Assembly: GCA_043803945.1 (NCBI GenBank)
Contig: JAZDJN010000104.1
Location: 70,647 to 134,646 of the forward strand
Direction of reading: 5' to 3'
DNA from: a bacterium
GTDB lineage: Bacteria > Bacteroidota > Ignavibacteria > UBA10030
Length of the DNA: 64,000 nt
The position numbers and the translations under genes are program-made. The notes under the pieces are model-generated. The model was not told the DNA's origin. It did not search any database and worked only from the letters and a program-made list of their open reading frames with translations. Below are positions 20,073 to 56,403 of the stretch, one piece after another; the stretch's first letter is position 1; each line of letters starts with the position of its first letter.

Positions 20073-20288
20073 TGACCCCATCCTACCTTCCCCTAAGAGT
20101 GGAAGGATTTAGGTGGGGTTGTCCAAAAAGCAAAAAAAGAACGCTGTCATTCCCGCATGCTTCTAGCGGGAATCCAGAAATTTGAAAGATTAAGGCACGG
20201 GACACCCGACCTGCCTGCCGGCAGGCAGGTAAAATCATTCGGGTGTGACAGTTTTTTTCTTTTTGATCAGCCCCTGAAGAGGGGGTCA
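20073..20288. repeat. GACCCC...GGGGTC palindromic element hosting a MITE
   Basis: TGACCCCATCCTACCTTCCCC...GGGGTCA; same style as 50855-50932. Confidence 0.6.
20115..20274. mobile_element. MITE with ~16-bp TIRs carrying a REP doublet
   Basis: GGGGTTGTCCAAAAAG ... CTTTTTGATCAGCCCC enclosing GTCATTCCCGCATGCTTCTAGCGGGAATCC and GGACACCCGA..TCGGGTGTGAC; inverted relative at 55890-56214. Confidence 0.75.
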
Positions 20289-25225: not shown

Positions 25226-25409
25226 TCCCCGTCCCGACATGTCGAGACAATCGGCCTGCTTGCGTGACGAAGCAACTTCCGCCTGCACTTCGTTTCGGCG
25301 GACAGGTCGGCAGGCAGGGGATCTGGAAAACAGAAGATATATGATGCGAGACACTCGGCAAAAGCATTCCTGCCCGCCATTTTTTGATCCACTGGGGCAG
25401 GCGGGCGGG
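25226..25409. repeat. cluster of nested GC-rich hairpins
   Basis: GTCCCGACATGTCGAGAC; CCTGCTTGC...[TCCGCC...GGCGGA]...GCAGGCAGG; CCTGCCCGCC...GGCGGGCGGG. Confidence 0.65.
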
Positions 25410-33345: not shown

Positions 33346-36093
33346 CTAATATTGAATTTCCAAACCAAGTCGATAGACCCGCGGCCTGCTGTAGGCATTG
33401 GGATCTTTAAATGGGCCCGTCGGATCGCCTGTTTGATCGAAGAGGATCAAACCCTCTCGCCCTCCAGAAATATAATTGACATTGATCCAGTTGAAGAGGT
33501 TGCGAGCCTCAGCGAGAACCGACCAATCGAGGCCGTACATCTGGAACGATTTTCGGAATCGCATGTCAACATTCTTCGTCCAGGGCAGCCGCCCATCATT
33601 TCTCAGCGAGAAGAGCGGGAACACATCGCGTGTATTTGTGGTATAGGGCGACCCGGAACTGAATGTTGCCACAAAATTCATCTCTGCGTCTCCAATCCAT
33701 TGATCGACGATTCCTGTGGAGCGCAGGATCAAATTCACATTGAACTTATGGCGGATATCCCAATCGAGCGGGTCGAGGCGCCGCGGGACAATCTGTCCAT
33801 TGGATCGGTAAACAGAAGAAGATCGACCATTGGCAAGAGCGTAGGTATAGTTGACCATTCCGCCAATGGGCTGATTTCCGAGTGTCTCAAGTGTAAATTC
33901 CAGGCCGCGGACATTCGCATAATCCATATTGCCGTACGCCTGAAATGGTTCAGCAGAACCGGGGATGTCGTAATCGATTGCGGCAAGAAGGTTGGTGATA
34001 TCCTTGAAGTATCCCGTGACACCCATCTTCACCCAGTCGGAGAATAGATGTTCCCAGCCGATTTCATAACTCACAGTTTTTTCAGGATTCAACCGGGGAT
34101 TTCCCAGATCCACGTTCGTTGTGAAGCGAAAATCAAGTTTGATATTTTCATAGAGAAACCGGAGGTCCGGTCGCTGGAAGAAGTGACCATAATAGAAGTG
34201 AATTTTATCCCGCTCAGTAATTGGATGAGAGATACCGATTCGTGGACTCACCTGCCAATGAGCGCTAACTTTATCAGCCGAGCTCAGAGTTGCTCTGCGA
34301 GCAGGATCAGTAAGTTCAATAGGGTCGGAAGGATACAGAACACCACCACCGAAGCCGTTCGGATTATAGTAATCAAAGCGAACTCCCGCGTTGAGAATAA
34401 ATCCATCGCGAACTTCAATTTTATCCTGGATATAGAACGCAGCATCGTAGAGACCTTCATTCCAGAGATCGAACCTCGGATTGAGAACCGACTCAAACGT
34501 CACTTTTTCAACATCTCCCTTACTGTAACTGAATTCAAATCCGCCCTTCAGGAGATTGTTTGTATTCAATTGATTCGAATAGTCGGCGCGGAGAGAGGTG
34601 GTGCGGGAAACCTGATTGAGATAATATCCCTGGTCGCCGGTATAGTTCCAGTAGGCCTGAATGTCGAGGATGCTCATATACCCGCCGGGCCCGCCATTCC
34701 TCAAATAGTGAAGCGCATCGTTCGTGCTCCCATCTCCGTTACGATCGTCAACATCACGACCGGCAAGGCGGTAGGTATTCGTAAACATCGAGAGTTTAAC
34801 ATCGAGAAACGATTGTTTGTTCAGGGTGTAATTCCATTGCAAACCGAGGTTATAACTATCATTAATCGGAATCGCTCGATGTTTCAACATTCCAGCTTGA
34901 TAGTAGTTCTTGACGGATTTATACCACTTTCCTTCGAACAACGCTGAATCCGGTTTACGGGCATTATGGTAATTTTGTGGATCCGGAACGAAAAAGTATT
35001 GTTCCAGCGTTGATACTCCGCTACTGGTGATCAGCCGCTGGAAGAGATCTTTTTGATATCCTTCGCTCAGCGGCCCAAACATCGAGTAATAGTGAGAATA
35101 GGAAGTGGATCGTGACCAGGATCGTACGCCGCTCAATTGAATCCGATGTTCGCCATAGTTCAAAGTGACTTTCGATTGGTATGCTTCACGGTATGAAGAT
35201 TCATTCTGAAGGAGACCTTTGTTCTGGAGGGCGACATCGGACGAAACGTTCAACCCCAGTTTCACGTCACCAAGAGAAACGTTCGGAGTAGTGAAGAAGA
35301 ATTCATAGTTCTTCCAATCGGGCTGTCCTTTGCCGAACTGATTCGGACGGAGCTCTACTTTGCTCCATGGAAAATCTGAGGTTCGTACCCGGAATTTCGC
35401 GCTGAATCGGGAAAACGGACTCCGTGTAATTGTATTGACAATTCCCGATTGGGCATTCCCGTATTCTGCTTCGAATCCACCGGTAGAGATCTGAATCTCC
35501 GACACGCTAAGCTGTGGAAGTGTAATCGCAAAACCACCGGTGTATTCGACGTATCCATTCACCGCCGTTTTCACGGGAAGACCATCGATAAGGAAAAGCG
35601 ACTCATTGAAGCGTCCGCCGCGAAAATGGCTTCCGTTCACACCAGCTTGCATGCGGACAATTTCCTGAAAGTTATCGACCGGCAATGCTGTTATCGTTCC
35701 TTCATCAATAGTATATTTTGTTGAAGTCAGGTCGATTTGAATGGGAGGGCGTTGCGCCGTCACAACAACTTCTTTTGCCATAACGGTAGAAGGTTCCAGA
35801 GCAATGTCAACGGTGGTTGTTATATCAAGCATGACTTTAATATTCGAAATTGTCTTAGCCGTATAACCTACCATCGATGCTCTGAGGGAGTATATTCCGA
35901 TCGGCACATTGATGATAAAATAATTTCCCTCGAAATCGGAGACCGCACCCATGGTAGTCCCGACAAGGGTAAGATTCACCATCGGCAAAGGTTCTTTCGT
36001 CTGAGAGTCGATCACCCTGCCTGCAATTTTTCCCGTTGTGCCAGCATAGAGCATCTGGCATAACAAGAGTAGTATGATTAAAAGTCGTTTCAT
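33346..36093 (-). CDS. TonB-dependent receptor
   Basis: GTTGKIAGRV carboxypeptidase-regulatory domain, plug (HFRGGR, GGFEAEYGNAQSG), LNPEKTVSYEIG, C-terminal aromatic residue. Confidence 0.94.
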   Translation of the reverse strand: MKRLLIILLLLCQMLYAGTTGKIAGRVIDSQTKEPLPMVNLTLVGTTMGAVSDFEGNYFIINVPIGIYSLRASMVGYTAKTISNIKVMLDITTTVDIALEPSTVMAKEVVVTAQRPPIQIDLTSTKYTIDEGTITALPVDNFQEIVRMQAGVNGSHFRGGRFNESLFLIDGLPVKTAVNGYVEYTGGFAITLPQLSVSEIQISTGGFEAEYGNAQSGIVNTITRSPFSRFSAKFRVRTSDFPWSKVELRPNQFGKGQPDWKNYEFFFTTPNVSLGDVKLGLNVSSDVALQNKGLLQNESSYREAYQSKVTLNYGEHRIQLSGVRSWSRSTSYSHYYSMFGPLSEGYQKDLFQRLITSSGVSTLEQYFFVPDPQNYHNARKPDSALFEGKWYKSVKNYYQAGMLKHRAIPINDSYNLGLQWNYTLNKQSFLDVKLSMFTNTYRLAGRDVDDRNGDGSTNDALHYLRNGGPGGYMSILDIQAYWNYTGDQGYYLNQVSRTTSLRADYSNQLNTNNLLKGGFEFSYSKGDVEKVTFESVLNPRFDLWNEGLYDAAFYIQDKIEVRDGFILNAGVRFDYYNPNGFGGGVLYPSDPIELTDPARRATLSSADKVSAHWQVSPRIGISHPITERDKIHFYYGHFFQRPDLRFLYENIKLDFRFTTNVDLGNPRLNPEKTVSYEIGWEHLFSDWVKMGVTGYFKDITNLLAAIDYDIPGSAEPFQAYGNMDYANVRGLEFTLETLGNQPIGGMVNYTYALANGRSSSVYRSNGQIVPRRLDPLDWDIRHKFNVNLILRSTGIVDQWIGDAEMNFVATFSSGSPYTTNTRDVFPLFSLRNDGRLPWTKNVDMRFRKSFQMYGLDWSVLAEARNLFNWINVNYISGGREGLILFDQTGDPTGPFKDPNAYSRPRVYRLGLEIQY

Positions 36094-41883: not shown

Positions 41884-42110
41884 GCCACAATGGACACTAA
41901 GGATGCGAAGAATAAAAAGAAAAAAGAGTAATGGAAATTTAAATTAATTCAACAGTTTTTCCTTTGCCTGCCCGACCTGCCTGCTGCAGGCAGGCGCAGG
42001 CGGGTGTCCTTCCCGCCAGACCGCATGGCGGGCTGGGGTGAACTTTTCAGCCAGAGGCTGATCCGCCAAAAAGAAGGCGGACAGGTGCGCCTTTGGTGCA
42101 GTGGTTTGAT
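41884..42110. repeat. inverted repeat pair with several nested hairpin insertions
   Basis: CCACAATGGACACTAAGG ... CCTTTG[..]TGTCCTT[..]...[..]AGTGG; inserts at 41967-42004, 42012-42032, ~42047-42099. Confidence 0.7.
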
Positions 42111-42137
42111 TATGTTCTTAACTGTTCGGCCAGATCT

Positions 42138-42497
42138 CTAGAGCTTCAGCATTTTCTCCACCAACGCTTTGAATGCCTCAATGCTGAATGGCTTCTCAAG
42201 GTAACCGATATCCGTGGCGGTTTTCCAGGCACCGGCAGTGAACATCGCCCCGGTCATAAAGATAATCGGTATCAGGGATGTCGCTTCATTCTGCCGCAAC
42301 TCTTCGACCATGACAAAACCATTCATATTGTCCATTTGCACATCGGTGATGATAAGATCGGGAAGATGGCGATTGGCCTGTTCAAGGCCCTCCATGCCAT
42401 CATTTGCCTCTAAAATCTCATATCCGGATTCATTCAATTCGAGGCTGATAGCCTTTCGGAATGCTTCCTCATCATCGACGACAAGAATCTTTTTCAT
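42138..42497 (-). CDS. single-domain response regulator (paralog)
   Basis: ILVVDDE, PDLIITDVQM, YLEKPF; same length as 41307-41666. Confidence 0.93.
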   Translation of the reverse strand: MKKILVVDDEEAFRKAISLELNESGYEILEANDGMEGLEQANRHLPDLIITDVQMDNMNGFVMVEELRQNEATSLIPIIFMTGAMFTAGAWKTATDIGYLEKPFSIEAFKALVEKMLKL

Positions 42498-42521
42498 AGT
42501 AATCCTTTTCCAGACATTCTG

Positions 42522-42550
42522 AAAGTAGTAAAGGGGTGCCCGAAAAGCAA
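42522..42550 (-). promoter_or_regulatory. putative sigma70 promoter
   Basis: TTGCTT-N17-TACTTT. Confidence 0.6.
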
Positions 42551-42570
42551 GCCGATGGTACGGAGCATCG

Positions 42571-45500
42571 TCAGCGCACTAACACCATTTTTCTTACACC
42601 GACGAACGATCCCGCCTTCACGTGAGCATAGTAGACACCGCTTGCTAACTGTGAAGCATTGAAGCTGATCACATAGCTGCCGGCAGACATTTCCTCATGG
42701 ACAAGCTGGGCGACCTCACGGCCAAGAAGATCGAAGACCTTCAGTTCAACCATGGATCGATCGGGGAGATCAAGGATAATCTGTGTCTGAGGATTAAAAG
42801 GATTGGGAAAGTTCTGGAAGAGGGAATACTGTTTCGGCGGGACCTCTTGCATTTGCTCAATCCCGAGAACAATGTTATCTTTCCCTCCGGCCTCAAGGTA
42901 CCGGGCTTTGAACTCCTGTAAGAACAAATTTGTAATCCGTTTGCTCTGAATGATGAGCGTGTTTTCATTATTCGAATTCTCGGCAGAACTTGACCAGTTA
43001 TGCGACCCTGTGATAACCGCAGCAGCGAGTCCTGAATTCTCTGCATCAACAACTGCATATTTGTGATGCAATAAACCATAGGGCTGACCTTTTAACCGTA
43101 CATCAATCCCGGCATTGGTCAGTGTGGAAAAAACACTCCCCTGATCGCTCGAATTGTCCATCAGAATGCGCACCCGTTTCCCGGCATTCTTCTTTGCGAT
43201 GAGTGCCTGGGCAATGTCATCGCGGGTGAATGTGAGCAGCGCACAATTGACGCTCGCCTGTGCGGAGTTGACTGTCTCAATAATTTTTGAAGTCGTCCTG
43301 TCCGACGGACTGAAATGCAATTCAACAGGAACATTATTAATAGAGAAGCGGTGCGGCGTGTTGTCCAGCTTCCGAAGCCCAAAACGGGAAGTACTCCGAT
43401 TCGGAAGATCTCCGTCGCTTCCCCACATCTCATTGAACTCGACCGTATAGGCACCGGCTAATGCCTGATCCTGAATTTCAAGAGCATTCTGTGAGTCCTG
43501 ATCGGTACCGGAATCCGTTGCATTCCATGACCCTGTCCAGACCCAGTCATCGGAGGCAGAGAAACGGTCGCGGTAATCGAAGATGGCAAATTTATTGTGC
43601 ATCAATCCCTGGCTCGATAGTGTTCCATCAAAAGCATCATCGATTACCTGGATACCATTCTGCATGAGTGTACCCCAGGGCTCTTGAATGGCAATATTAT
43701 CCTGTTCTCCAATTACTCGTACTCGAACACCACGCAATTTTGCTGCAACGAGAGCCGTGGCAACTGATGTTCCAACCGATTTACTTAAGCTATACAGGCA
43801 GACATCGATGGAATATTTTGCGGCATTGATGCGGTCGATAAACTTCAAAGCAAGGTTGCTTACCGTTGCCTGCTCACCCGATGCCACGCTGCCATCAACC
43901 GATCTATTGAAATAGACATTGATGGTACCCGAGGATGCCGCAGGAGAAGCTGTGCTGAATAGAGCATCACCCGTGCTGTTGATTCCACTCGCATCTCCGG
44001 ATCCGACCTGATAATGATAGATTGTTCCGGCTGTTAATCCACGAATGGCAAGGGAGTGTTGTGAGACGCTCTCCGATTTCCCGATGGAATCAGAATAAGG
44101 GGTAGTCGCTCCGAAGCGGATAAAACTCGAAGATGGTGTCGATGTTGTCCAGACGAGTGTCACTTCATCCGGTTTGATGTTTGTTTCCTTTGGGAGTGAA
44201 GTTATTGCCGGACCCGGATGGAGAATGATGTCTGCTTGTGTGCGCGGAACAATTTCGTAATCCGATTTGTAAGGAGGCGGTGGAGCTGGAGTACCGGGAG
44301 CATATTGTTTGATAATCCCGATCAGGTCGAACATTCCATTTGGTGCAATGAAAGATGTTGAAATGAAGGCACCTGTTGTTCCCGTTGCGTCCGTGATAGT
44401 CGAGTTTGCCGCATTATAGGTTACACCGTTGATGCGGACAAGCCTTCCCTCATTCGGCTCGGTGTATGTATCCGTATTGAATGTTGCATTGACATCGCGG
44501 GCCGTGAGAAGCAATGGTTGCGGCACTAGCCGGCTGCGGGCATGAAGAATGTACTTAGCTGAGTCGAGAAGAATTTCAGTGAGGCCCCGAAACTGCGTAA
44601 TGGTTCCGGTCACTGTAACACTATCGCCCATCTGATAGTTGAAAAAACGAACCGGCTGGTAGATGCTGATTCCCGCCGTGGCATCCTGCACAAAGACATC
44701 TGTCCTCGTAGAAGTAAGATCGGCCGTGATGATTCCGCTTACGGTGACAGTAGCACCATTTTGGTATGGCGGAGCCGGGACTCCCTGTGCATCGTTGATG
44801 TGAACATTGATAATCGGAATTACTTTTGTAACTGTAATCCTTGTCGGCAATGCAATGGCGAGCGGAGGATTCCGCTGCGAGCCGGTCTTCACAATAAATA
44901 CTCCCGTACCTGCTGCATCAGGTGATTGCAGGTTAATTATCGACACAATACCCGAATCGTTTTTTGTGACAGCCGTAGGTCCGATGAAGAGTGTATCACC
45001 GCTGACTGTCCTGCTGCTGCTCGCAAGCCCTGTGCCGCTGAGTGTAACGGCGGTTGTGGTGCGAGGCCAGTTCCACCCTGCCGGTACAATAATGATCAGG
45101 CTATCGAGTGTGTTTGTTCCATCACCGATTATTTTCAGAGAGAAGGTTGTCGTGGTATTGGCCTGAACGACAGAGGGTACAATTATGGCGGTACCGCTGC
45201 CGCTTCCTCCCGTTACAATCGGAGGTTCTGCAGGGCTGAGTGAATTTTGAGGCTGGGGGGTTGATCTGGTAACGAAATCTATACTATTGTTATTGGAGTC
45301 GTAACCGTTTCCTTCTTGCTCGTCGGATCCACCCATGGCCATTGAAGTGGGTGTTGAACTACTTATTGCCTTTCGTTCCAGGGAGACACCTTCACTGGTT
45401 ACGTTCGGCGCTGTCCCTTCTGCAAAAGTAGCATTTGATCCTCCCCATCCCAATGCATCAATGGTAACACCTGAAGAAGTACGCAATAGAATTGCTGCGG

Positions 45501-45849
45501 CTGTATTCGAAAGACCAAGTGTTGACGATGGGGTTGGATTATCCTTATTTGCCACCCCACCACCTCCAAACAAATAATATTTATGCGGTTGAATTATTGC
45601 TCCAGTTGGAAAAGTATACTTATTCGAAATCGTGCCGCCCGTGGAGCGATAATCAATAGTCCAACCAGAAACATCTATCGCGTTCTCGGTGGGATTATAA
45701 ATCTCTATAAATTCATCATTCGAAGTTGCATCAGTTTCGTATATCCCATTAATTAGCACTTCGCTTATAACAACATGATTCGTTGTTTGAGAAAAAAGTG
45801 TGCTCGCGCAGAAGAGAAATAGAAAAAGAATTAAGAAAAGAGAACGCAT
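42571..45849 (-). CDS. secreted phospholipase D-family (Nuc-like) protein: lamin-tail, OB-fold, FN3-like, 2x HKD, T9SS CTD
   Basis: VVISEV/EFIEIYNPT, GDSVTVTG, MHNKFAIFD and LHHKYAVVD, GSHNWS, QNFPNPFNP. Confidence 0.88.
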   Translation of the reverse strand: MRSLFLILFLFLFCASTLFSQTTNHVVISEVLINGIYETDATSNDEFIEIYNPTENAIDVSGWTIDYRSTGGTISNKYTFPTGAIIQPHKYYLFGGGGVANKDNPTPSSTLGLSNTAAAILLRTSSGVTIDALGWGGSNATFAEGTAPNVTSEGVSLERKAISSSTPTSMAMGGSDEQEGNGYDSNNNSIDFVTRSTPQPQNSLSPAEPPIVTGGSGSGTAIIVPSVVQANTTTTFSLKIIGDGTNTLDSLIIIVPAGWNWPRTTTAVTLSGTGLASSSRTVSGDTLFIGPTAVTKNDSGIVSIINLQSPDAAGTGVFIVKTGSQRNPPLAIALPTRITVTKVIPIINVHINDAQGVPAPPYQNGATVTVSGIITADLTSTRTDVFVQDATAGISIYQPVRFFNYQMGDSVTVTGTITQFRGLTEILLDSAKYILHARSRLVPQPLLLTARDVNATFNTDTYTEPNEGRLVRINGVTYNAANSTITDATGTTGAFISTSFIAPNGMFDLIGIIKQYAPGTPAPPPPYKSDYEIVPRTQADIILHPGPAITSLPKETNIKPDEVTLVWTTSTPSSSFIRFGATTPYSDSIGKSESVSQHSLAIRGLTAGTIYHYQVGSGDASGINSTGDALFSTASPAASSGTINVYFNRSVDGSVASGEQATVSNLALKFIDRINAAKYSIDVCLYSLSKSVGTSVATALVAAKLRGVRVRVIGEQDNIAIQEPWGTLMQNGIQVIDDAFDGTLSSQGLMHNKFAIFDYRDRFSASDDWVWTGSWNATDSGTDQDSQNALEIQDQALAGAYTVEFNEMWGSDGDLPNRSTSRFGLRKLDNTPHRFSINNVPVELHFSPSDRTTSKIIETVNSAQASVNCALLTFTRDDIAQALIAKKNAGKRVRILMDNSSDQGSVFSTLTNAGIDVRLKGQPYGLLHHKYAVVDAENSGLAAAVITGSHNWSSSAENSNNENTLIIQSKRITNLFLQEFKARYLEAGGKDNIVLGIEQMQEVPPKQYSLFQNFPNPFNPQTQIILDLPDRSMVELKVFDLLGREVAQLVHEEMSAGSYVISFNASQLASGVYYAHVKAGSFVGVRKMVLVR

Positions 45850-45956
45850 CTGGATTTCCTGTTGTTAATTTAGATATAAGATAGCGTTTTTTACATGCTA
45901 TCCAAAGATGCCAATTTTTGGAAATAGCTTCATCTCTCTCTATATTCTTAACAGAT

Positions 45957-46352
45957 ATGACAAAGGTCGCGGTTGCATTACTATGGAAGGATGGAGCCAT
46001 CCTTCTCTGCCAGCGGAAGCGCGGCGGCAGGTATGAGCTCAGATGGGAATTCCCCGGCGGGAAGTTCGAACCTCATGAAAATACCCTGAGCTGCCTGAAG
46101 CGTGAGTTGAAAGAGGAACTTTCAATCGACATTCCCGGCATTGAACGCATCGAAGTCGAGCGAGCGTTCTATGAAGACGGCGGAATGTTTGAGGTCTCCT
46201 ACTGCACGGTGAACTATTTCTCAGGCGAAGTCCGCAACAACGTCTTCGAACAAATCCAGTGGATAGCACCGTCAATGCTTCTTCAGTACGACATTCTCCA
46301 GGGCAATCTCGGCATCGCCCGGCGACTCGCAGGCGAGGTCGACCGTTCATGA
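45957..46352 (+). CDS. mutT: NUDIX hydrolase, MutT-like
   Basis: WEFPGGKFEPHENTLSCLKRELKEEL; stop overlaps mutY start. Confidence 0.85.
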   Translation: MTKVAVALLWKDGAILLCQRKRGGRYELRWEFPGGKFEPHENTLSCLKRELKEELSIDIPGIERIEVERAFYEDGGMFEVSYCTVNYFSGEVRNNVFEQIQWIAPSMLLQYDILQGNLGIARRLAGEVDRS

Positions 46353-47278
46353 AACACCTGCACCCCCATAAACTTGACGGTAAGAAAAAGCAAAGGATTA
46401 TATCGGCAGTTCTCAGATGGTACAAAAACAATGGCCGTACTCTTCCCTGGAGAGACCATCCCAATCCCTATCACATTCTGGTCTCAGAAATAATGCTGCA
46501 ACAGACCCAGATACGCCGGGTATTGGAAAAGTATCCTCTCTTCCTTCGGCAGTTTCCGTCATTCAAAAAACTTGCCTCCGCCGGAACCGCAGAGGTCATC
46601 CGTGCCTGGCAGGGTATGGGCTACAACAACCGCAGTGTCAGACTACAAGAAACCGCCCTCATTGTTGTGCGAAATTACGGAGGAATGCTTCCCTCCGATA
46701 TCGAGACACTCATGCACTTTCCCGGAATCGGCCGCTATACAGCTCATGCCATCGCCTGTTTTGCCTTCGGTCAGCGGGTGCCGGTCGTCGACACCAACAT
46801 TGCCCGGATTCTCCAACGCCTGTTTCCGCACCAAAACGGGAGGGCTAACGCAGAGAGGATATGGGAGATCGCCGAAACGCTTCTCCCCGCGAAGCAGGTG
46901 CACGATTGGAATCAGGCTCTAATGGACCTTGGTTCGAGTGTCTGCCTCGCCCGTAATCCGCATTGCACAATCTGTCCGCTAAAGGGAAATTGCCCAAGCG
47001 CTTTCGCTCCGCAACAATCTCGGGATGGAAAGAAAAAAAACGAGCCTGGCAGGTATGGCGTCCCAAACCGATTGCATCGGGGAAAGATTGTCGCTGTACT
47101 ACGGACTCTGGCTGGCAAGAGATCAATTTCTATTGATAATCTTGGAAAGAAGATCCTCATCCACTACACCAAACGAGACCGTCCCTGGCTTGCCGCACTT
47201 CTTAAACAGATGAGCAATGACGGAGTGGCCTCACTCAAAGTAAGAAACGGTATAATCTTTACGGCTCTTCCCGAATGA
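46349..47278 (+). CDS. mutY: A/G-specific adenine glycosylase
   Basis: LPWR, VSEIMLQQT, WQGMGYNNR, PGIGRYTA, VVDTN, NQALMDLG, Fe-S Cys cluster. Confidence 0.95.
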   Translation: MKHLHPHKLDGKKKQRIISAVLRWYKNNGRTLPWRDHPNPYHILVSEIMLQQTQIRRVLEKYPLFLRQFPSFKKLASAGTAEVIRAWQGMGYNNRSVRLQETALIVVRNYGGMLPSDIETLMHFPGIGRYTAHAIACFAFGQRVPVVDTNIARILQRLFPHQNGRANAERIWEIAETLLPAKQVHDWNQALMDLGSSVCLARNPHCTICPLKGNCPSAFAPQQSRDGKKKNEPGRYGVPNRLHRGKIVAVLRTLAGKRSISIDNLGKKILIHYTKRDRPWLAALLKQMSNDGVASLKVRNGIIFTALPE

Positions 47279-47650
47279 GCAAATAAGAGAAACACGAACA
47301 GTCCCTAGCGGAGCTGCTTCAGGCATATGCTGCAGGAAGAGAACAGATTCAATCCCGGCTGAATGACTTCTCAAAGATTCCCCCTGAGCAGTACTTCTAT
47401 GAGTTAGTCTATTGCCTTCTGACACCTCAAACCAATGCGATCCATGCCGACATCGTGGTGCAGCAGCTTCAAGCAAACAAGTTTCAACTTTCGGCTCGGT
47501 GTTATCCGCTCGCTTCCCAAGACGATCACAAAGAAAGAGTATTACTCAATCGAAAAGAAATTTCGGAAATTTGCGGTCGAGATTCAGATTCCGCTGGATG
47601 AACTTGATCTATTATTCTGGAGCCTGGAAACCGGCGAGATTCGAAAATAG
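47275..47650 (+). pseudogene. ogg: 8-oxoguanine N-glycosylase/DNA lyase (Ogg-type) pseudogene
   Basis: ATG AGC AAA TAA stop at codon 4; then FYELVYCLLTPQ; frame change ~47490 to EYYSIEKKF...IPLDELDLLFWSLETGEIRK; HhH catalytic core absent. Confidence 0.8.
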
Positions 47651-47704
47651 GTAACTACTCCGTGGGGTAAAATGTGGTTTACCTATTATTTGATACTCTC
47701 TTCA

Positions 47705-47785
47705 GGACCTAACCAAAAAGTACCAAACTGTAACTGTAACCTTCCGAAGGTCTCTGAGTTGACTCCTTAGAACCTTCGGAAGGTT
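47705..47785. repeat. orphan MITE-type end plus AACCTTCCGAAGG REP doublet
   Basis: GGACCTAACCAAAAAG, then AACCTTCCGAAGGT and AACCTTCGGAAGGTT; related copy at 53437-53493. Confidence 0.65.
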
Positions 47786-48015
47786 TATATGTTCTCACAC
47801 CTTAATGTCCATTTCGATAATTGATTCGTTGATTCTTTGAATCGGAATAGCAATATTATAGAGAGTGTTTTCAGATATTCCAGGAAGCACGAGTACAGGG
47901 CATCACTTGGTGCGTCAGGCACAACAACGTTTTCTTGATAATGCACTCTCATCAACCCGGAAAATTGACACAAGGATTCTTTTTTCGCACAATACCTCAA
48001 CGCAGCAATCATGGG

Positions 48016-49596
48016 ATGACGTCGTATCGATTGAGGTTGTGTGCATTATTGTTCCTCCTCCCTCTTTACGTTTCCATTTGCCAGCAACTGAACCTGACTC
48101 TTCAGATCGAACAGCAGCAGCCCGCCCGCGTTCGTACGTTGGCACGGTTTCAAGTACTCTATCTCGCCGTCAATGATGTTGCAGCGGCCCTCGCACCATT
48201 ATCGACCATTAACCAGGAGAGGAAGAAATTCGAGCTTCGCCTGCTTCAGCACCGTATGAAGTTGAGTGCCAATAATCCATTTATCGTGGTGACCGAAAGT
48301 GAATCGAACACCTCTTCTGTCTTTCAACTTTCCCGCAGCGTGATTCTGATCGATTCTCTCTACTACATGCCGTTCCAACCCTTCCTTTATCTCCTTCAAC
48401 GCTACAGTCAGAAACCCGTGGCTTATGATGAAGCAAAATCATTGATCACCATCGGTTCAATACCTCGTTTTGAGATCAAAGATTTTACCGTGGAGAAAAA
48501 GGATAACGGCTACCTCCTGACAATCCAATCGGACAAACGGCTGGGCGACCATAACGCCTTTCTGAGGCAGGATGGATCGCTCATTGTAACAATCGTCGAT
48601 GCCAGGGCAGATACTCAGGACTTTAATCACCGTCCGCCTATGGAACCGATTACAAGGATTGTCACCCAGCAATTCCGTACAGCACTGCAGCTTACGTTCA
48701 AGCTGTCATCATCGATTGCGCAAGCGGAGGTCATCAATGATCCGCAAAGTACGAACCTGATCATTGATCTCCGCAAAAAGAGCGAGACAACAAAAGTGCA
48801 GCCTGCGCCAAAGAAAGAACCGGCGGCTAACGGTAAGCCGGGGGAGGAACCGCAGCGGCAGTTGCTCGATGTTGTTGTCATCGATCCCGGCCATGGAGGA
48901 AAGGATCCCGGAACAGTCGGCCTCAGCGGAACGTACGAGAAGGTGGTGGCGCTCGCTATTGCCAGGATTGTAAAAGAGCAGATGACAAAACAGATGAAGG
49001 ATGTGAAGGTGCATCTGACCCGCGAACGGGATGACCAGTTTGTGGCATTACACGAGCGAACAAAAATGGCCAACGATTGGCAGGGAAAATTGTTCATCAG
49101 TATCCATTGCAACTCGACAGAACGAAAACCTTCTACGGCAAACGGATTTGAAATCTATTTGCTGCGAGAGGGAAAAGATGAAGATGCAAGACGGATTGCC
49201 GAGGTGGAAAACTCGGTCATCACCCTGGAGGAAGGATACGAAAACCGTTACAAGGAGTTGACGATAGAAAAATTTATGATCATTAAAGCACAACAAAGCA
49301 AATTCTGGAGATACAGCGAGCGATTTGCCGAGATCGCATCGACGACGATGGATGAACATTTGAGCACGAAAAATCGCGAAGTGAAGCAGGCCGGGTTCTA
49401 CGTCCTTGTCGGTGCGGCCATGCCTAATGTTCTGGTGGAGACCGGTTATCTTTCCAACCGAGTGGAAGAAAAATTTCTCTACTCAGCAGCAGGGCAGCGG
49501 CGCATTGCTGAAGCGTTGGTTCAAAGCATCAAAAAGTATAAGCAGGAATTCGAGTTAGAAACTATCGAGAACACCACAGATCAAAGCCGGGATTAA
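48016..49596 (+). CDS. N-acetylmuramoyl-L-alanine amidase (AmiC-like)
   Basis: VVIDPGHGGKDPG, FISIHCN, VLVETGYLSN; start uncertain (47935 or 48016). Confidence 0.93.
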   Translation: MTSYRLRLCALLFLLPLYVSICQQLNLTLQIEQQQPARVRTLARFQVLYLAVNDVAAALAPLSTINQERKKFELRLLQHRMKLSANNPFIVVTESESNTSSVFQLSRSVILIDSLYYMPFQPFLYLLQRYSQKPVAYDEAKSLITIGSIPRFEIKDFTVEKKDNGYLLTIQSDKRLGDHNAFLRQDGSLIVTIVDARADTQDFNHRPPMEPITRIVTQQFRTALQLTFKLSSSIAQAEVINDPQSTNLIIDLRKKSETTKVQPAPKKEPAANGKPGEEPQRQLLDVVVIDPGHGGKDPGTVGLSGTYEKVVALAIARIVKEQMTKQMKDVKVHLTRERDDQFVALHERTKMANDWQGKLFISIHCNSTERKPSTANGFEIYLLREGKDEDARRIAEVENSVITLEEGYENRYKELTIEKFMIIKAQQSKFWRYSERFAEIASTTMDEHLSTKNREVKQAGFYVLVGAAMPNVLVETGYLSNRVEEKFLYSAAGQRRIAEALVQSIKKYKQEFELETIENTTDQSRD

Positions 49597-49635
49597 CACT
49601 TTACCTCCAGCGCGGGCAGGCTATTAAAAACCTCC

Positions 49636-49664
49636 TTGCACCCTGCCGAACTTTCACTTAATTT
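49636..49664 (+). promoter_or_regulatory. putative sigma70 promoter
   Basis: TTGCAC-N17-TAATTT. Confidence 0.4.
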
Positions 49665-49666
49665 GA

Positions 49667-49806
49667 CCACTGATGCACACGGATATACACTGAACAAGCA
49701 TCGGTTTTTTCTATGTTCTTCGTGTTTCTTCTCAGCCAAAGGCTGATCCGCCAAACAGACGCCTGCCTGCCGCAGGCAGGGCGGACAGGTGCGCCTGGCG
49801 CAGTGG
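49667..49806. repeat. inverted repeat pair with nested hairpin insertions
   Basis: CCACTGATGCACACGGA ... TTCGTGTTTCTT[CAGCCAAAGGCTGATCCGCC..[CCTGCCTGCCGCAGGCAGG]GCGG..]AGTGG. Confidence 0.7.
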
Positions 49807-55889: not shown

Positions 55890-56214
55890 GGGGCTTCCAA
55901 AAAGAAACGATCTGTCACACCGAAATGTCTGGACCTGACTAAAAAGAAAAAAACTAGGGCATCACGAACCACTTCGTGACGCAATATGCCGAAAACATTC
56001 AGATTTCATGTGTCACGGTGTGGACCGTGACACCCTTGGCGTACTTTTTAGTCAGCCCCGATACCTCGACGAAGTCGGGCTTCAATCCGGTGTCCAGTAC
56101 ATTGATTTAGCATTTTTCTGGATTCTCTGCCTGCCAAAGTTTCTTTAGCACGCAGGCAGGCGGCTAGAAGCTTGCCGGAATGACAGTCCGTGAGTTCTCT
56201 TTTTGGTCAGTCCC
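55890..56214. mobile_element. MITE containing a second nested MITE (55931-56059) and hairpin insertions
   Basis: Outer GGGGCTTCCAAAAAG...CTTTTTGGTCAGTCCC; inner GGACCTGACTAAAAAG...CTTTTTAGTCAGCCCC. Confidence 0.78.
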
Positions 56215-56403
56215 TGCCTGCCAAAGTGCCTTTGGCACGTAGGCAGGGGTGGGATCAGATCACACGATACAGAGAATCTGTTCGTTCCCGGAACTCCCTC
56301 TAAGAGGAGGTGTGGTCGGGTTCGCGTCTATACTTGAGAAAATTTCTTGATCAACTGTCGTCACCTTCGAAGGAAACTCGATTAATCAGTGTAATCTGCG
56401 GTC

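Follow-up and report, generated by a model that had tools for sequence, protein, structure and literature searches.

A 19- to 20-nt hairpin that behaves like one of the smallest known mobile DNA elements

The window analyzed here, a 64,000-nt part of contig C104 (JAZDJN010000104.1) of an ignavibacterial assembly (GCA_043803945.1, G000; 5.54 Mb, 118 contigs, 46.5% G+C), contains several copies of a short hairpin which behaves like one of the smallest known mobile DNA elements. Tight copies, 19-20 nt long, have the form CCTGCCTGC-N1-2-GCAGGCAGG, that is, 9-bp arms around 1-2 free bases, and expanded copies have the same arms around a longer loop that holds other hairpin modules. The hairpin is a discrete module which has been inserted many times, and we hold this with high confidence. 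Its best candidate recognizer is a clade of ~80-residue single-domain GIY-YIG nucleases.

To our knowledge, mobile DNA needs at a minimum ends that a transposase recognizes, and the units accepted as smallest measure ~100 nt or are doublets of repetitive extragenic palindromic (REP) sequences. A 19-20-nt unit would lower the size limit of mobile DNA, and its base-exact insertion, its identity across phyla and its hundreds of copies point to an undescribed way of moving DNA.

Filled and empty sites in the window

The window holds three matches to the tight pattern, at the positions 20210, 41976 and 49762 named in an earlier note on this DNA, and none of 100 dinucleotide-preserving shuffles contained one (Table 1). 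The 9-mer arm occurs 10 times, compared with a shuffle mean of 0.47. The expanded forms proposed in the same note exist as well, with starts refined to 25255, 56126 and 56213, and each of the three carries one mismatch, in one arm only. All window copies, tight and expanded, are situated between long open frames. A single CCTGCCTGC arm at 36016-36024, with no partner arm nearby, is probably due to chance.

For each of these three tight copies, empty versions of the same site are present elsewhere in the genome. Seven empty paralogues of the 20-mer junction were found for the 20210 copy, with gapless empty alignments of up to 70 nt, and four for the 41976 copy, one of which, on contig C64, extends over 58 nt with 98% identity. 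The 41976 copy lies within the loop of a related hairpin, as the earlier note had described around 41967; without the insertion this outer hairpin reads cctgcccgacgcaggcggg and is present on contigs C64, C98, C21 and C16. The 49762 copy has the largest number, with 21 empty paralogues of its junction genome-wide (20-mer, ≤2 mismatches). Its host, repeat B (cagcca.aggctgatccgcc...gcggacaggtgcgcc), occurs empty within the window itself, where the empty repeat aligns without gaps to the 49762 site across its junction once the hairpin has been deleted (46 nt, 93%). The filled repeat B composite recurs in three further copies, on contigs C59, C95 and C98, in identical orientation.

A second host, ggattc/gctagaagc, is filled at 56126 and empty at 20160-20175 on the reverse strand, and thus both filled/empty pairs that the earlier note had recognized were recovered. 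The composite of the 56126 copy recurs with exact arms at C42:17228, and the architecture of the 25255 copy is that of exact-arm expanded copies, e.g., C12:32649 and C58:41245.

Table 1. Hairpin copies and host sites in the window (window positions), and Y1 transposase genes with palindromes of their own (contig:positions). A slash within a sequence marks the insertion point
Feature	Position	Sequence or context	Basis or remark
Tight 20-nt copy, loop CG	20210-20229	After left arm of host hairpin, ggacacccga/taaaatcattcgggtg (also given as ggacacccga/taaaatcattcgggtgtgac)	Pattern match
Tight 19-nt copy, loop T	41976-41994	Nested in loop of related hairpin	Pattern match
Outer related hairpin	41966-42004	gcctgcccga/cgcaggcggg	Hosts 41976 copy
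Tight 19-nt copy, loop C	49762-49780	3' edge of loop of host repeat B, tccgccaaacagacg/gcgga	Pattern match
Empty host repeat B	42049-42092 (+ strand)		Junction between 42076 and 42077
Expanded copy	25255-25318	CCTGCTTGC, 46-nt loop of further hairpin modules, GCAGGCAGG	
Expanded copy	56126-56160	TCTGCCTGC, 17-nt loop caaagtttctttagcac, GCAGGCAGG; in right arm of NTS-like hairpin, ggattc/cggctagaag...ccggaatgac	
Expanded copy	56213-56247	CCTGCCTGC, 17-nt loop, GTAGGCAGG	
Empty NTS-like hairpin	20147-20176	gtcattcccgc...gcgggaatcc	Unfilled form of 56126 host
RAYT-like Y1 gene	C65:26953-27516		Own palindromes
RAYT-like Y1 gene	C62:20005-20595		Own palindromes
RAYT-like Y1 gene	C16:24951-25352		Own palindromes
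RAYT-like Y1 gene	C85:25011-25574		Own palindromes
RAYT-like Y1 gene	C72:16424-17035		Own palindromes
RAYT-like Y1 gene	C66:7339-7950		Own palindromes

Base-exact insertion across the genome

The whole assembly contains 217 arms, 32 tight hairpins and 26 exact-arm copies with loops of 11-73 nt, so that the few copies which the earlier note had named as a sign against mobility were not what was found. The loops of the tight copies are G (n = 11), CG (n = 10), C (n = 7), T (n = 3) and A (n = 1). Relatives of this genome share ~70% nucleotide identity with it, in coding DNA only, and the best metagenome relative of a 1092-aa protein encoded beside the window sites is 55% identical.

In the junction test, each tight copy was deleted in silico and the joined flanks were searched genome-wide as exact 9 + 9 junctions, with the boundaries shifted from -5 to +5. 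An exact empty paralogue was found for 13 of the 32 tight copies. Unshifted boundaries (0,0) gave matches for 9 hairpins at 38 sites, the diagonal shifts (-1,-1), (+1,+1) and (-2,-2) for 8 at 28, 5 at 16 and 2 at 8, respectively, and 7 of the 110 off-diagonal cells were matched. Because the matches lie on the diagonal near zero, the difference between filled and empty sites is exactly the length of the element, with a boundary ambiguity of 1 nt. This genome-wide shift test revealed no target duplication at filled compared with empty sites, which agrees with what the earlier note had seen in the window.

The 32 tight copies fall into 18 flank contexts, and in a relaxed version of the test (20-mer junction, ≤2 mismatches; estimated chance expectation ~0.02 matches per query) 12 of the 18 contexts had empty paralogues. 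One identical 19- to 20-mer in 18 unrelated contexts means that the empty sites cannot have come from deletion, which the earlier note had considered as the opposite explanation.

Tight copies are found outside long open frames in 23 of 32 cases, though such frames make up 86% of the genome and leave 14% for the remainder; the other copies lie upstream of the first start codon or in the last 12-13 codons of a frame. This placement, together with the extreme conservation of the sequence, would suit a non-mobile functional motif, a terminator or protein-binding site kept by selection, whose empty sites arose by deletion. Such a motif can hardly be credited, since deletion cannot make the same 19- to 20-mer in 18 unrelated contexts and since removal of the hairpin restores intact transposase frames in another genome (see below). 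Furthermore, a 9-bp stem with a 1- to 2-nt loop is a poor RNA terminator, no T-run follows it, and an Rfam scan of the window gave no family above threshold.

Insertion into transposase genes

The direction of change can be read from G477, a complete gammaproteobacterial chromosome of 3.66 Mb with 497 copies, of which 400 kb (20 stretches) were analyzed in detailed context. This part contains 65-66 copies in 52-53 contexts. Twenty of 66 copies are inside frames of ≥200 residues which appear only after in silico deletion of the hairpin, and all frames restored in this way are insertion-sequence transposase genes. Within 2.2 kb at C1:360400-362600 (L340), removal of eight 19-mers yields two intact frames of 344 and 276 aa. 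Since the frames are restored when the hairpin is removed, the change is an insertion, and the module can land in coding DNA where the gene is dispensable. The ultra-short mobile element suggested by the earlier note is therefore borne out as a discrete unit, present in many contexts and with a known direction of change.

Transposase genes at four loci of G477 (L340, L360, L361 and L362) contain 3-5 copies of the 19-mer each, and deletion gives frames of 344 and 276-317 aa. Several copies of one insertion sequence share hairpin positions. Hairpin doublets less than 110 nt apart were seen only in G477.

The bases next to the element are not random in G477. Over 52 contexts, the preceding base is A in 25, G in 16, C in 10 and T in 1, and the following base is T in 23, C in 18, G in 8 and A in 3. 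The two flanking bases are complementary in 34 of the 52 contexts, with no complementarity further out.

Nesting in other repeats

When the hairpin is removed, the flanks of 28 of the 32 tight copies are dispersed repeats, compared with 102 of 400 random sites outside long frames, and flanks with ≥3 paralogues were found for 24 of 32 copies compared with 54 of 400 random sites. The idea that most copies lie within or against another palindrome thus stands as far as the host repeats are concerned. A preference for predicted hairpin loops over neighboring positions was not significant: the 32 junctions lie in a stem (n = 14), in external sequence (n = 7), at a loop edge (n = 4), in an interior position (n = 4), in a loop (n = 2) or at a foot (n = 1), and these classes were about as frequent at control positions 4-25 nt away. 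A claim of loop preference was dropped.

The tight hairpin itself serves as an insertion host. In three unrelated genomes the hairpin is nested in its own loop at the same position, CCTGCCTGCCG/hairpin/GCAGGCAGG. The hairpin loop can also be filled by a second-order module of 16-17 nt (gtgccgaaggcac with ttcg), as it is at 56135-56151 and 56222-56238 of the window, and the 17-nt loop module is present in 7 of the 26 expanded copies of this genome. As the tight form at C38:10067 shares its flank context with copies holding the 17-nt loop module, the loop module also behaves as an insertion.

In every multi-copy filled context of this genome, the orientation of the loop base is uniform. Part of the copy number therefore comes from multiplied composites, and the independent events in this genome number ~18 rather than 32. 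The hairpin may be a passenger with no enzyme of its own, riding mainly on REP-like repeats, insertion sequences, GIY-YIG/tRNA cassettes and phages, helped by short-patch conversion between paralogous repeats, and entering new contexts by rare accidents of replication or repair, e.g., when a hairpin-forming oligonucleotide is incorporated at a lagging-strand nick. The placement of 28 of 32 copies within other dispersed repeats fits such a passenger, as do the uniform loop orientation, which suits a single insertion followed by spread of the composite, the hairpin positions common to insertion-sequence copies in G477, the copies in viral contigs, and the high-copy genomes that lack both candidate enzyme families discussed below. 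Yet the 18 unrelated contexts here and the 52-53 in 400 kb of G477 require many independent base-exact events, which are hard to explain by accident. All 18 bases of the arms stay the same from phylum to phylum, a constancy that speaks for a protein recognizing them, and the flanks are non-random (T precedes in 1 of 52 contexts and A follows in 3 of 52). On balance, we consider a passenger possible but doubtful.

Distribution across phyla and viral contigs

The exact pattern was counted in 86 genomes (33 genera) of the family and in 401 genomes (180 genera) of the phylum, with the reversed pattern as the chance control. It was found in 48 of the 86 family genomes and 23 of the 33 genera, with 0-35 copies per genome, and in 55 of the 401 genomes and 43 of the 180 genera of the phylum sample; the reversed pattern was absent from every genome of both samples.

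A scan of one genome per species, covering all bacteria and archaea, gave at least 119 stretches with the hairpin. Among the 80 listed, the names carried by the sequence records come from at least 12 phyla. These listed matches include Patescibacteria (ten candidate groups), Bacteroidota including cultured isolates, Ignavibacteriota, Omnitrophota, Planctomycetota, Acidobacteriota, Gamma- and 'Delta'-proteobacteria, Bdellovibrionales, Armatimonadota, Chloroflexi, Thermodesulfovibrionales and others. Viral contigs contributed 51 stretches, some of which hold 3-6 copies.

Copy numbers in five genomes reached from loci of the species-level scan were 3, 497, 3, 4 and 4. The dominant loop variant differs by genome, being G/C in this genome and T/A in G477, and such genome-specific variants fit amplification within the genome. 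The module belongs to a family that is unchanged across many phyla and viral contigs, with lineage-specific bursts.

HUH/Y1 transposases as candidates

According to the earlier note, the window has no gene for an enzyme that moves the hairpin, and this was true of contig C104, on which neither PF01797 nor PF01541 had a match. An HUH enzyme of the RAYT (REP-associated tyrosine transposase)/TnpA type, acting in trans, had been suggested instead, and a RAYT- or IS200-like Y1 transposase that moves the hairpin as a minimal REP has points in its favor. There are 12 Y1_Tnp matches in this genome, mostly RAYT-like frames of 190-220 residues and flanked by palindromes. The sequence tgcctgccgtaggca, a single mismatch away from the hairpin core, flanks the IS200-like gene of contig C31, and single-strand transposition of the IS200/IS605 type typically leaves no target duplication, as discussed in PMC3116915. 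Y1_Tnp was found in 80 of the 86 family genomes, a proportion at which presence does not discriminate.

The genomic context speaks against this type of enzyme. In the flanks inspected, the palindromes at the Y1 genes belong to other families at nine of the twelve and are absent at three; none of the 12 genes in this genome has the hairpin on both sides, and the only gene with an CCTGCCTGC hairpin beside it has this ~200 nt upstream, on one side. When five further hairpin-rich genomes were inspected, 2 of their 30 Y1 loci held a full copy. Hairpin copies are mostly singlets and not inverted doublets, and the GTAG/CGTC tag is absent. Finally, the complete G477 chromosome has 497 copies and no Y1_Tnp match. 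The HUH suggestion is thus not supported and is close to refuted.

At least six RAYT-like Y1 genes of this genome (Table 1) have their own palindrome family, e.g., ccttcggaagg, gaagtctgtcttct and ggcaaggc...gccttgcc, and such REP/RAYT pairs are unusually numerous for one genome. In the window, the sequence adjoining the 41976 hairpin (41995-42035) is a copy of the repeat cccgccagaccgcatggcgggc, whose family borders the Y1 gene of contig C72.

Small GIY-YIG nucleases at tRNA genes

This genome encodes ~13 small GIY-YIG proteins, and four of the genes adjoin tRNA genes. An arrangement with the hairpin is found in another genome of the family, G055, where two tandem units each consist of a tRNA-Leu 5' fragment ending in GGCAGA, the 20-mer hairpin, the sequence CGCGCTAGC... 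and a gene for an 83-aa GIY-YIG protein. The units are followed by an intact tRNA-Leu gene, in which GGCAGA and CGCGCTAGC are continuous. The 83-aa protein is a bare PF01541 domain (E = 1.2e-17, residues 2-68), and the solved chains closest to this nuclease clade are the UPF0213 structures 1ywl and 1zg2.

Among the best 30 family matches to the G055 nuclease, all nine orthologues with ≥55% identity are directly preceded by a tRNA-Leu fragment that contains the hairpin (four tight, three expanded, one with a single mismatch and one with the right arm only), compared with none of the 21 matches below 50% identity. The hairpin lies upstream only, ~22 nt before the start codon of the nuclease, and within the tRNA fragment it occupies the 3' edge of the D-loop. 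In the genome studied here, C13:98-117 is such a tRNA-Leu fragment with its hairpin; after it come the initial 24 codons of a gene for a nuclease of this clade (71% identical), which is cut off by the end of the contig, and a second tRNA-Leu fragment with hairpin, at C95:123076, has no nuclease gene. The layout recurs with nucleases only 38-40% identical, both in a WWE3 genome, at tRNA-Lys (L101), and in a viral contig (L369). The association is one-way: the nuclease clade always occurs with the hairpin, and most hairpins occur alone.

Other GIY-YIG/tRNA cassettes of this genome have different hairpins in their leftover fragments. Small GIY-YIG genes at C99:20740-21151, C109:3132-3560 and C98:16617-17150 adjoin intact tRNA-Pro, tRNA-Asp and tRNA-Ser genes. 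The far side holds a duplicated tRNA fragment in which a hairpin from another family breaks up the D- or T-arm. The layout seems to be general. Tandem arrays of 13 near-identical small GIY-YIG genes at G043:C18:93003-97650 and G016:C2:365027-368829, with periods of 368 and ~299 nt, look like repeated insertion of a cassette at one tRNA-side target. In a Patescibacteria sequence (L071:4018-4090), a tRNA 5' fragment with the hairpin at GGTTAGA/GCGCG lies 50 nt before an intact tRNA-Met gene and has no nuclease gene, and in a gammaproteobacterium (L103:860-1200) a tRNA-Val fragment with a different hairpin is accompanied by a remnant of a GIY-YIG gene.

A possible mode of action is suggested by the Ssn nucleases, 94-aa single-domain GIY-YIG proteins which, according to PMC11893778, bind the hairpin of their own system only when it is single-stranded, cleave the DNA a few nucleotides before it and accept extensions of its loop. 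In the mechanism we propose, the small nuclease would recognize the folded single-stranded hairpin and would cut at its foot; once freed or copied, the hairpin would be joined into a nick elsewhere. We infer the single-stranded substrate and the joining step and also, by analogy with the Ssn nucleases, the binding or cutting. We put the probability that a small GIY-YIG nuclease recognizes the hairpin as single-stranded DNA at roughly 0.45.

Several observations weigh against this mechanism. GIY-YIG enzymes cut DNA but lack a joining activity, which the mechanism therefore has to assume. By our own hidden Markov model (E ≤ 1e-3), 3 of the 80 all-phyla loci and 1 of the 51 viral loci have a GIY-YIG gene no more than 600 nt from the hairpin, and a tRNA gene lies within 300 nt in 7 of the 80; in this genome, 1 of the 32 tight copies is followed by a GIY-YIG gene. 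No orthologue with ≥55% identity is present in G062 (35 copies), G017 (28), G073 (18), G048 (10) or G049 (7), and the junction of GGYAGA and CCTGCCTGC was found in none of these five hairpin-rich genomes. The GIY-YIG genes of G477 encode one Ssn-like protein, one YhbQ-like protein and larger GIY-YIG proteins, and none of them is tRNA-adjacent or flanked by this hairpin. A loop-orientation bias that would mark a strand-specific process is absent from the 400 kb of G477 (33 A vs 26 T). The absence of the nuclease from several hairpin-rich genomes leaves it unproven as the mover. The association might also be functionless: a hairpin that simply prefers the D-loop DNA of tRNA genes, and that persists only where a tRNA fragment is dispensable, would show it too, as the cassettes supply such fragments.

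A possible other enzyme acting in trans

Bursts in genomes that lack both candidates could reflect a dedicated enzyme which is neither Y1 nor a tRNA-linked GIY-YIG nuclease and which acts in trans, perhaps encoded by a phage or plasmid. The 51 viral stretches, some with multiple copies, would suit this, as would the weak flank rule, by which a purine precedes the element and a pyrimidine follows it, often complementary. Nevertheless, no gene family is enriched near the hairpin among 1736 frames of 80 loci, where no cluster extends over more than 5 loci and those in contact with the hairpin consist of housekeeping genes (Rrf2, SSB and ParB). The genes between hairpin pairs are ordinary both in G477 and in this genome, where 11 neighboring arm sites lie 250-2500 nt apart around ordinary genes or intergenic DNA. 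We therefore regard such an enzyme as quite unlikely. One gene considered as a candidate, an HNH gene beside a hairpin doublet of G477, was rejected, as its homologues in this genome lie 4.8 and 35 kb from any arm.

An unrelated repeat may be mentioned here: the 30-mer GTTTCAATTCCACTCTGGTTCGACTGAATC occurs ~125 times in this genome and is probably a CRISPR repeat.

Implications

The findings permit a broader proposal, which we offer tentatively and which may well be wrong in part: the palindrome would be an active transposable unit, the smallest known, present in more than 10 phyla and in phages, moved as a folded single strand by tiny hairpin-recognizing nucleases or another enzyme, with bursts of ~500 copies per genome, and preferentially riddling other selfish DNA such as REP-like hairpins, insertion-sequence transposase genes and leftover tRNA fragments. 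If this is true, the hairpin would be a parasite of parasites, or even a host-side brake on selfish DNA.

For genome annotation, the module breaks or extends reading frames and splits contigs, as in the cassette at the end of contig C13, and it marks widespread small nuclease cassettes at tRNA genes. If small GIY-YIG proteins do recognize the hairpin, they would offer new specificities for single-strand-specific nuclease tools.

Comparison with known systems

A search of the searchable literature (main texts) with five exact hairpin sequences and the encoded peptides returned no relevant paper, and a search for GIY-YIG, tRNA gene and palindrome in combination returned organelle and unrelated papers only.

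The size of the element sets it apart from miniature inverted-repeat transposable elements (MITEs), which have terminal inverted repeats, a body of ≥50 nt and a target-site duplication, whereas the present element has 19-20 nt and no duplication. GC clusters and Rickettsia elements are longer, roughly 30-150 nt, and are limited to organelles or one genus. Unlike the present module, they are not known to accompany a small GIY-YIG nuclease beside tRNA genes. The resemblance is that yeast mitochondrial GC clusters (PMC4478555) and Rickettsia palindromic elements are also short and GC-rich palindromes, each inserted as a unit into DNA that is richer in AT, genes included; in PMC3733652, the Rickettsia elements are mentioned inside open reading frames.

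The pairing of a single-domain GIY-YIG protein of ~80-95 residues with an adjoining dispersed hairpin repeat is shared with Ssn and its NTS/SRM repeats (Chenal et al. 2025, PMC11893778), and the single-domain PF01541 protein of 83 aa found here is close to the ~90 residues of that system. Yet the present hairpin does not fit the SRM consensus as given there, which begins HGTCWY, and it lacks the GTC-containing 5' part. It also flanks the gene on a single side rather than on both, from within a duplicated tRNA fragment, and the word tRNA does not occur in the main text of the Ssn paper. NTS-like hairpins and Ssn-like genes are also present in this genome.

With REPs, bacterial interspersed mosaic elements (BIMEs) and REPIN-RAYT systems (PMC3116915, PMC3733652), the module shares the character of an extragenic, dispersed palindrome of ~20-40 nt that forms mosaics and inserts without target duplication, and its copy number and preference for sites outside long frames agree with those of a REP. 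It differs in that no RAYT gene is flanked by the present hairpin and in that the copies are singlets. The GTAG/CGTC tag described for REPs in PMC3733652 is absent from both the element and its flanks. REP families are lineage-specific, whereas the present sequence is common to many phyla.

The small dispersed repeats SDR1-8, which Elhai et al. 2008 reportedly described in Nostoc punctiforme and relatives, are said to be hairpin-forming discrete insertions of 21-27 nt, often nested in their own copies or in other repeats. We know of no enzyme for these SDRs. The present module resembles them in its filled/empty pairs of exact length and in being nested both in itself and in other repeats. It differs, by description only, in its length of 19-20 nt, its near-perfect palindrome, its tie to a GIY-YIG/tRNA cassette and its unchanged occurrence across at least 12 phyla as well as viral contigs rather than in one cyanobacterial group.

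For REPs, a comparable case is Thermomicrobium roseum, where they are described inside small host palindromes that are also found empty (PMC3733652). The closest described behavior to that of the hairpin is found in two systems, the small dispersed repeats of Nostoc and the REPs inserted into small palindromes.

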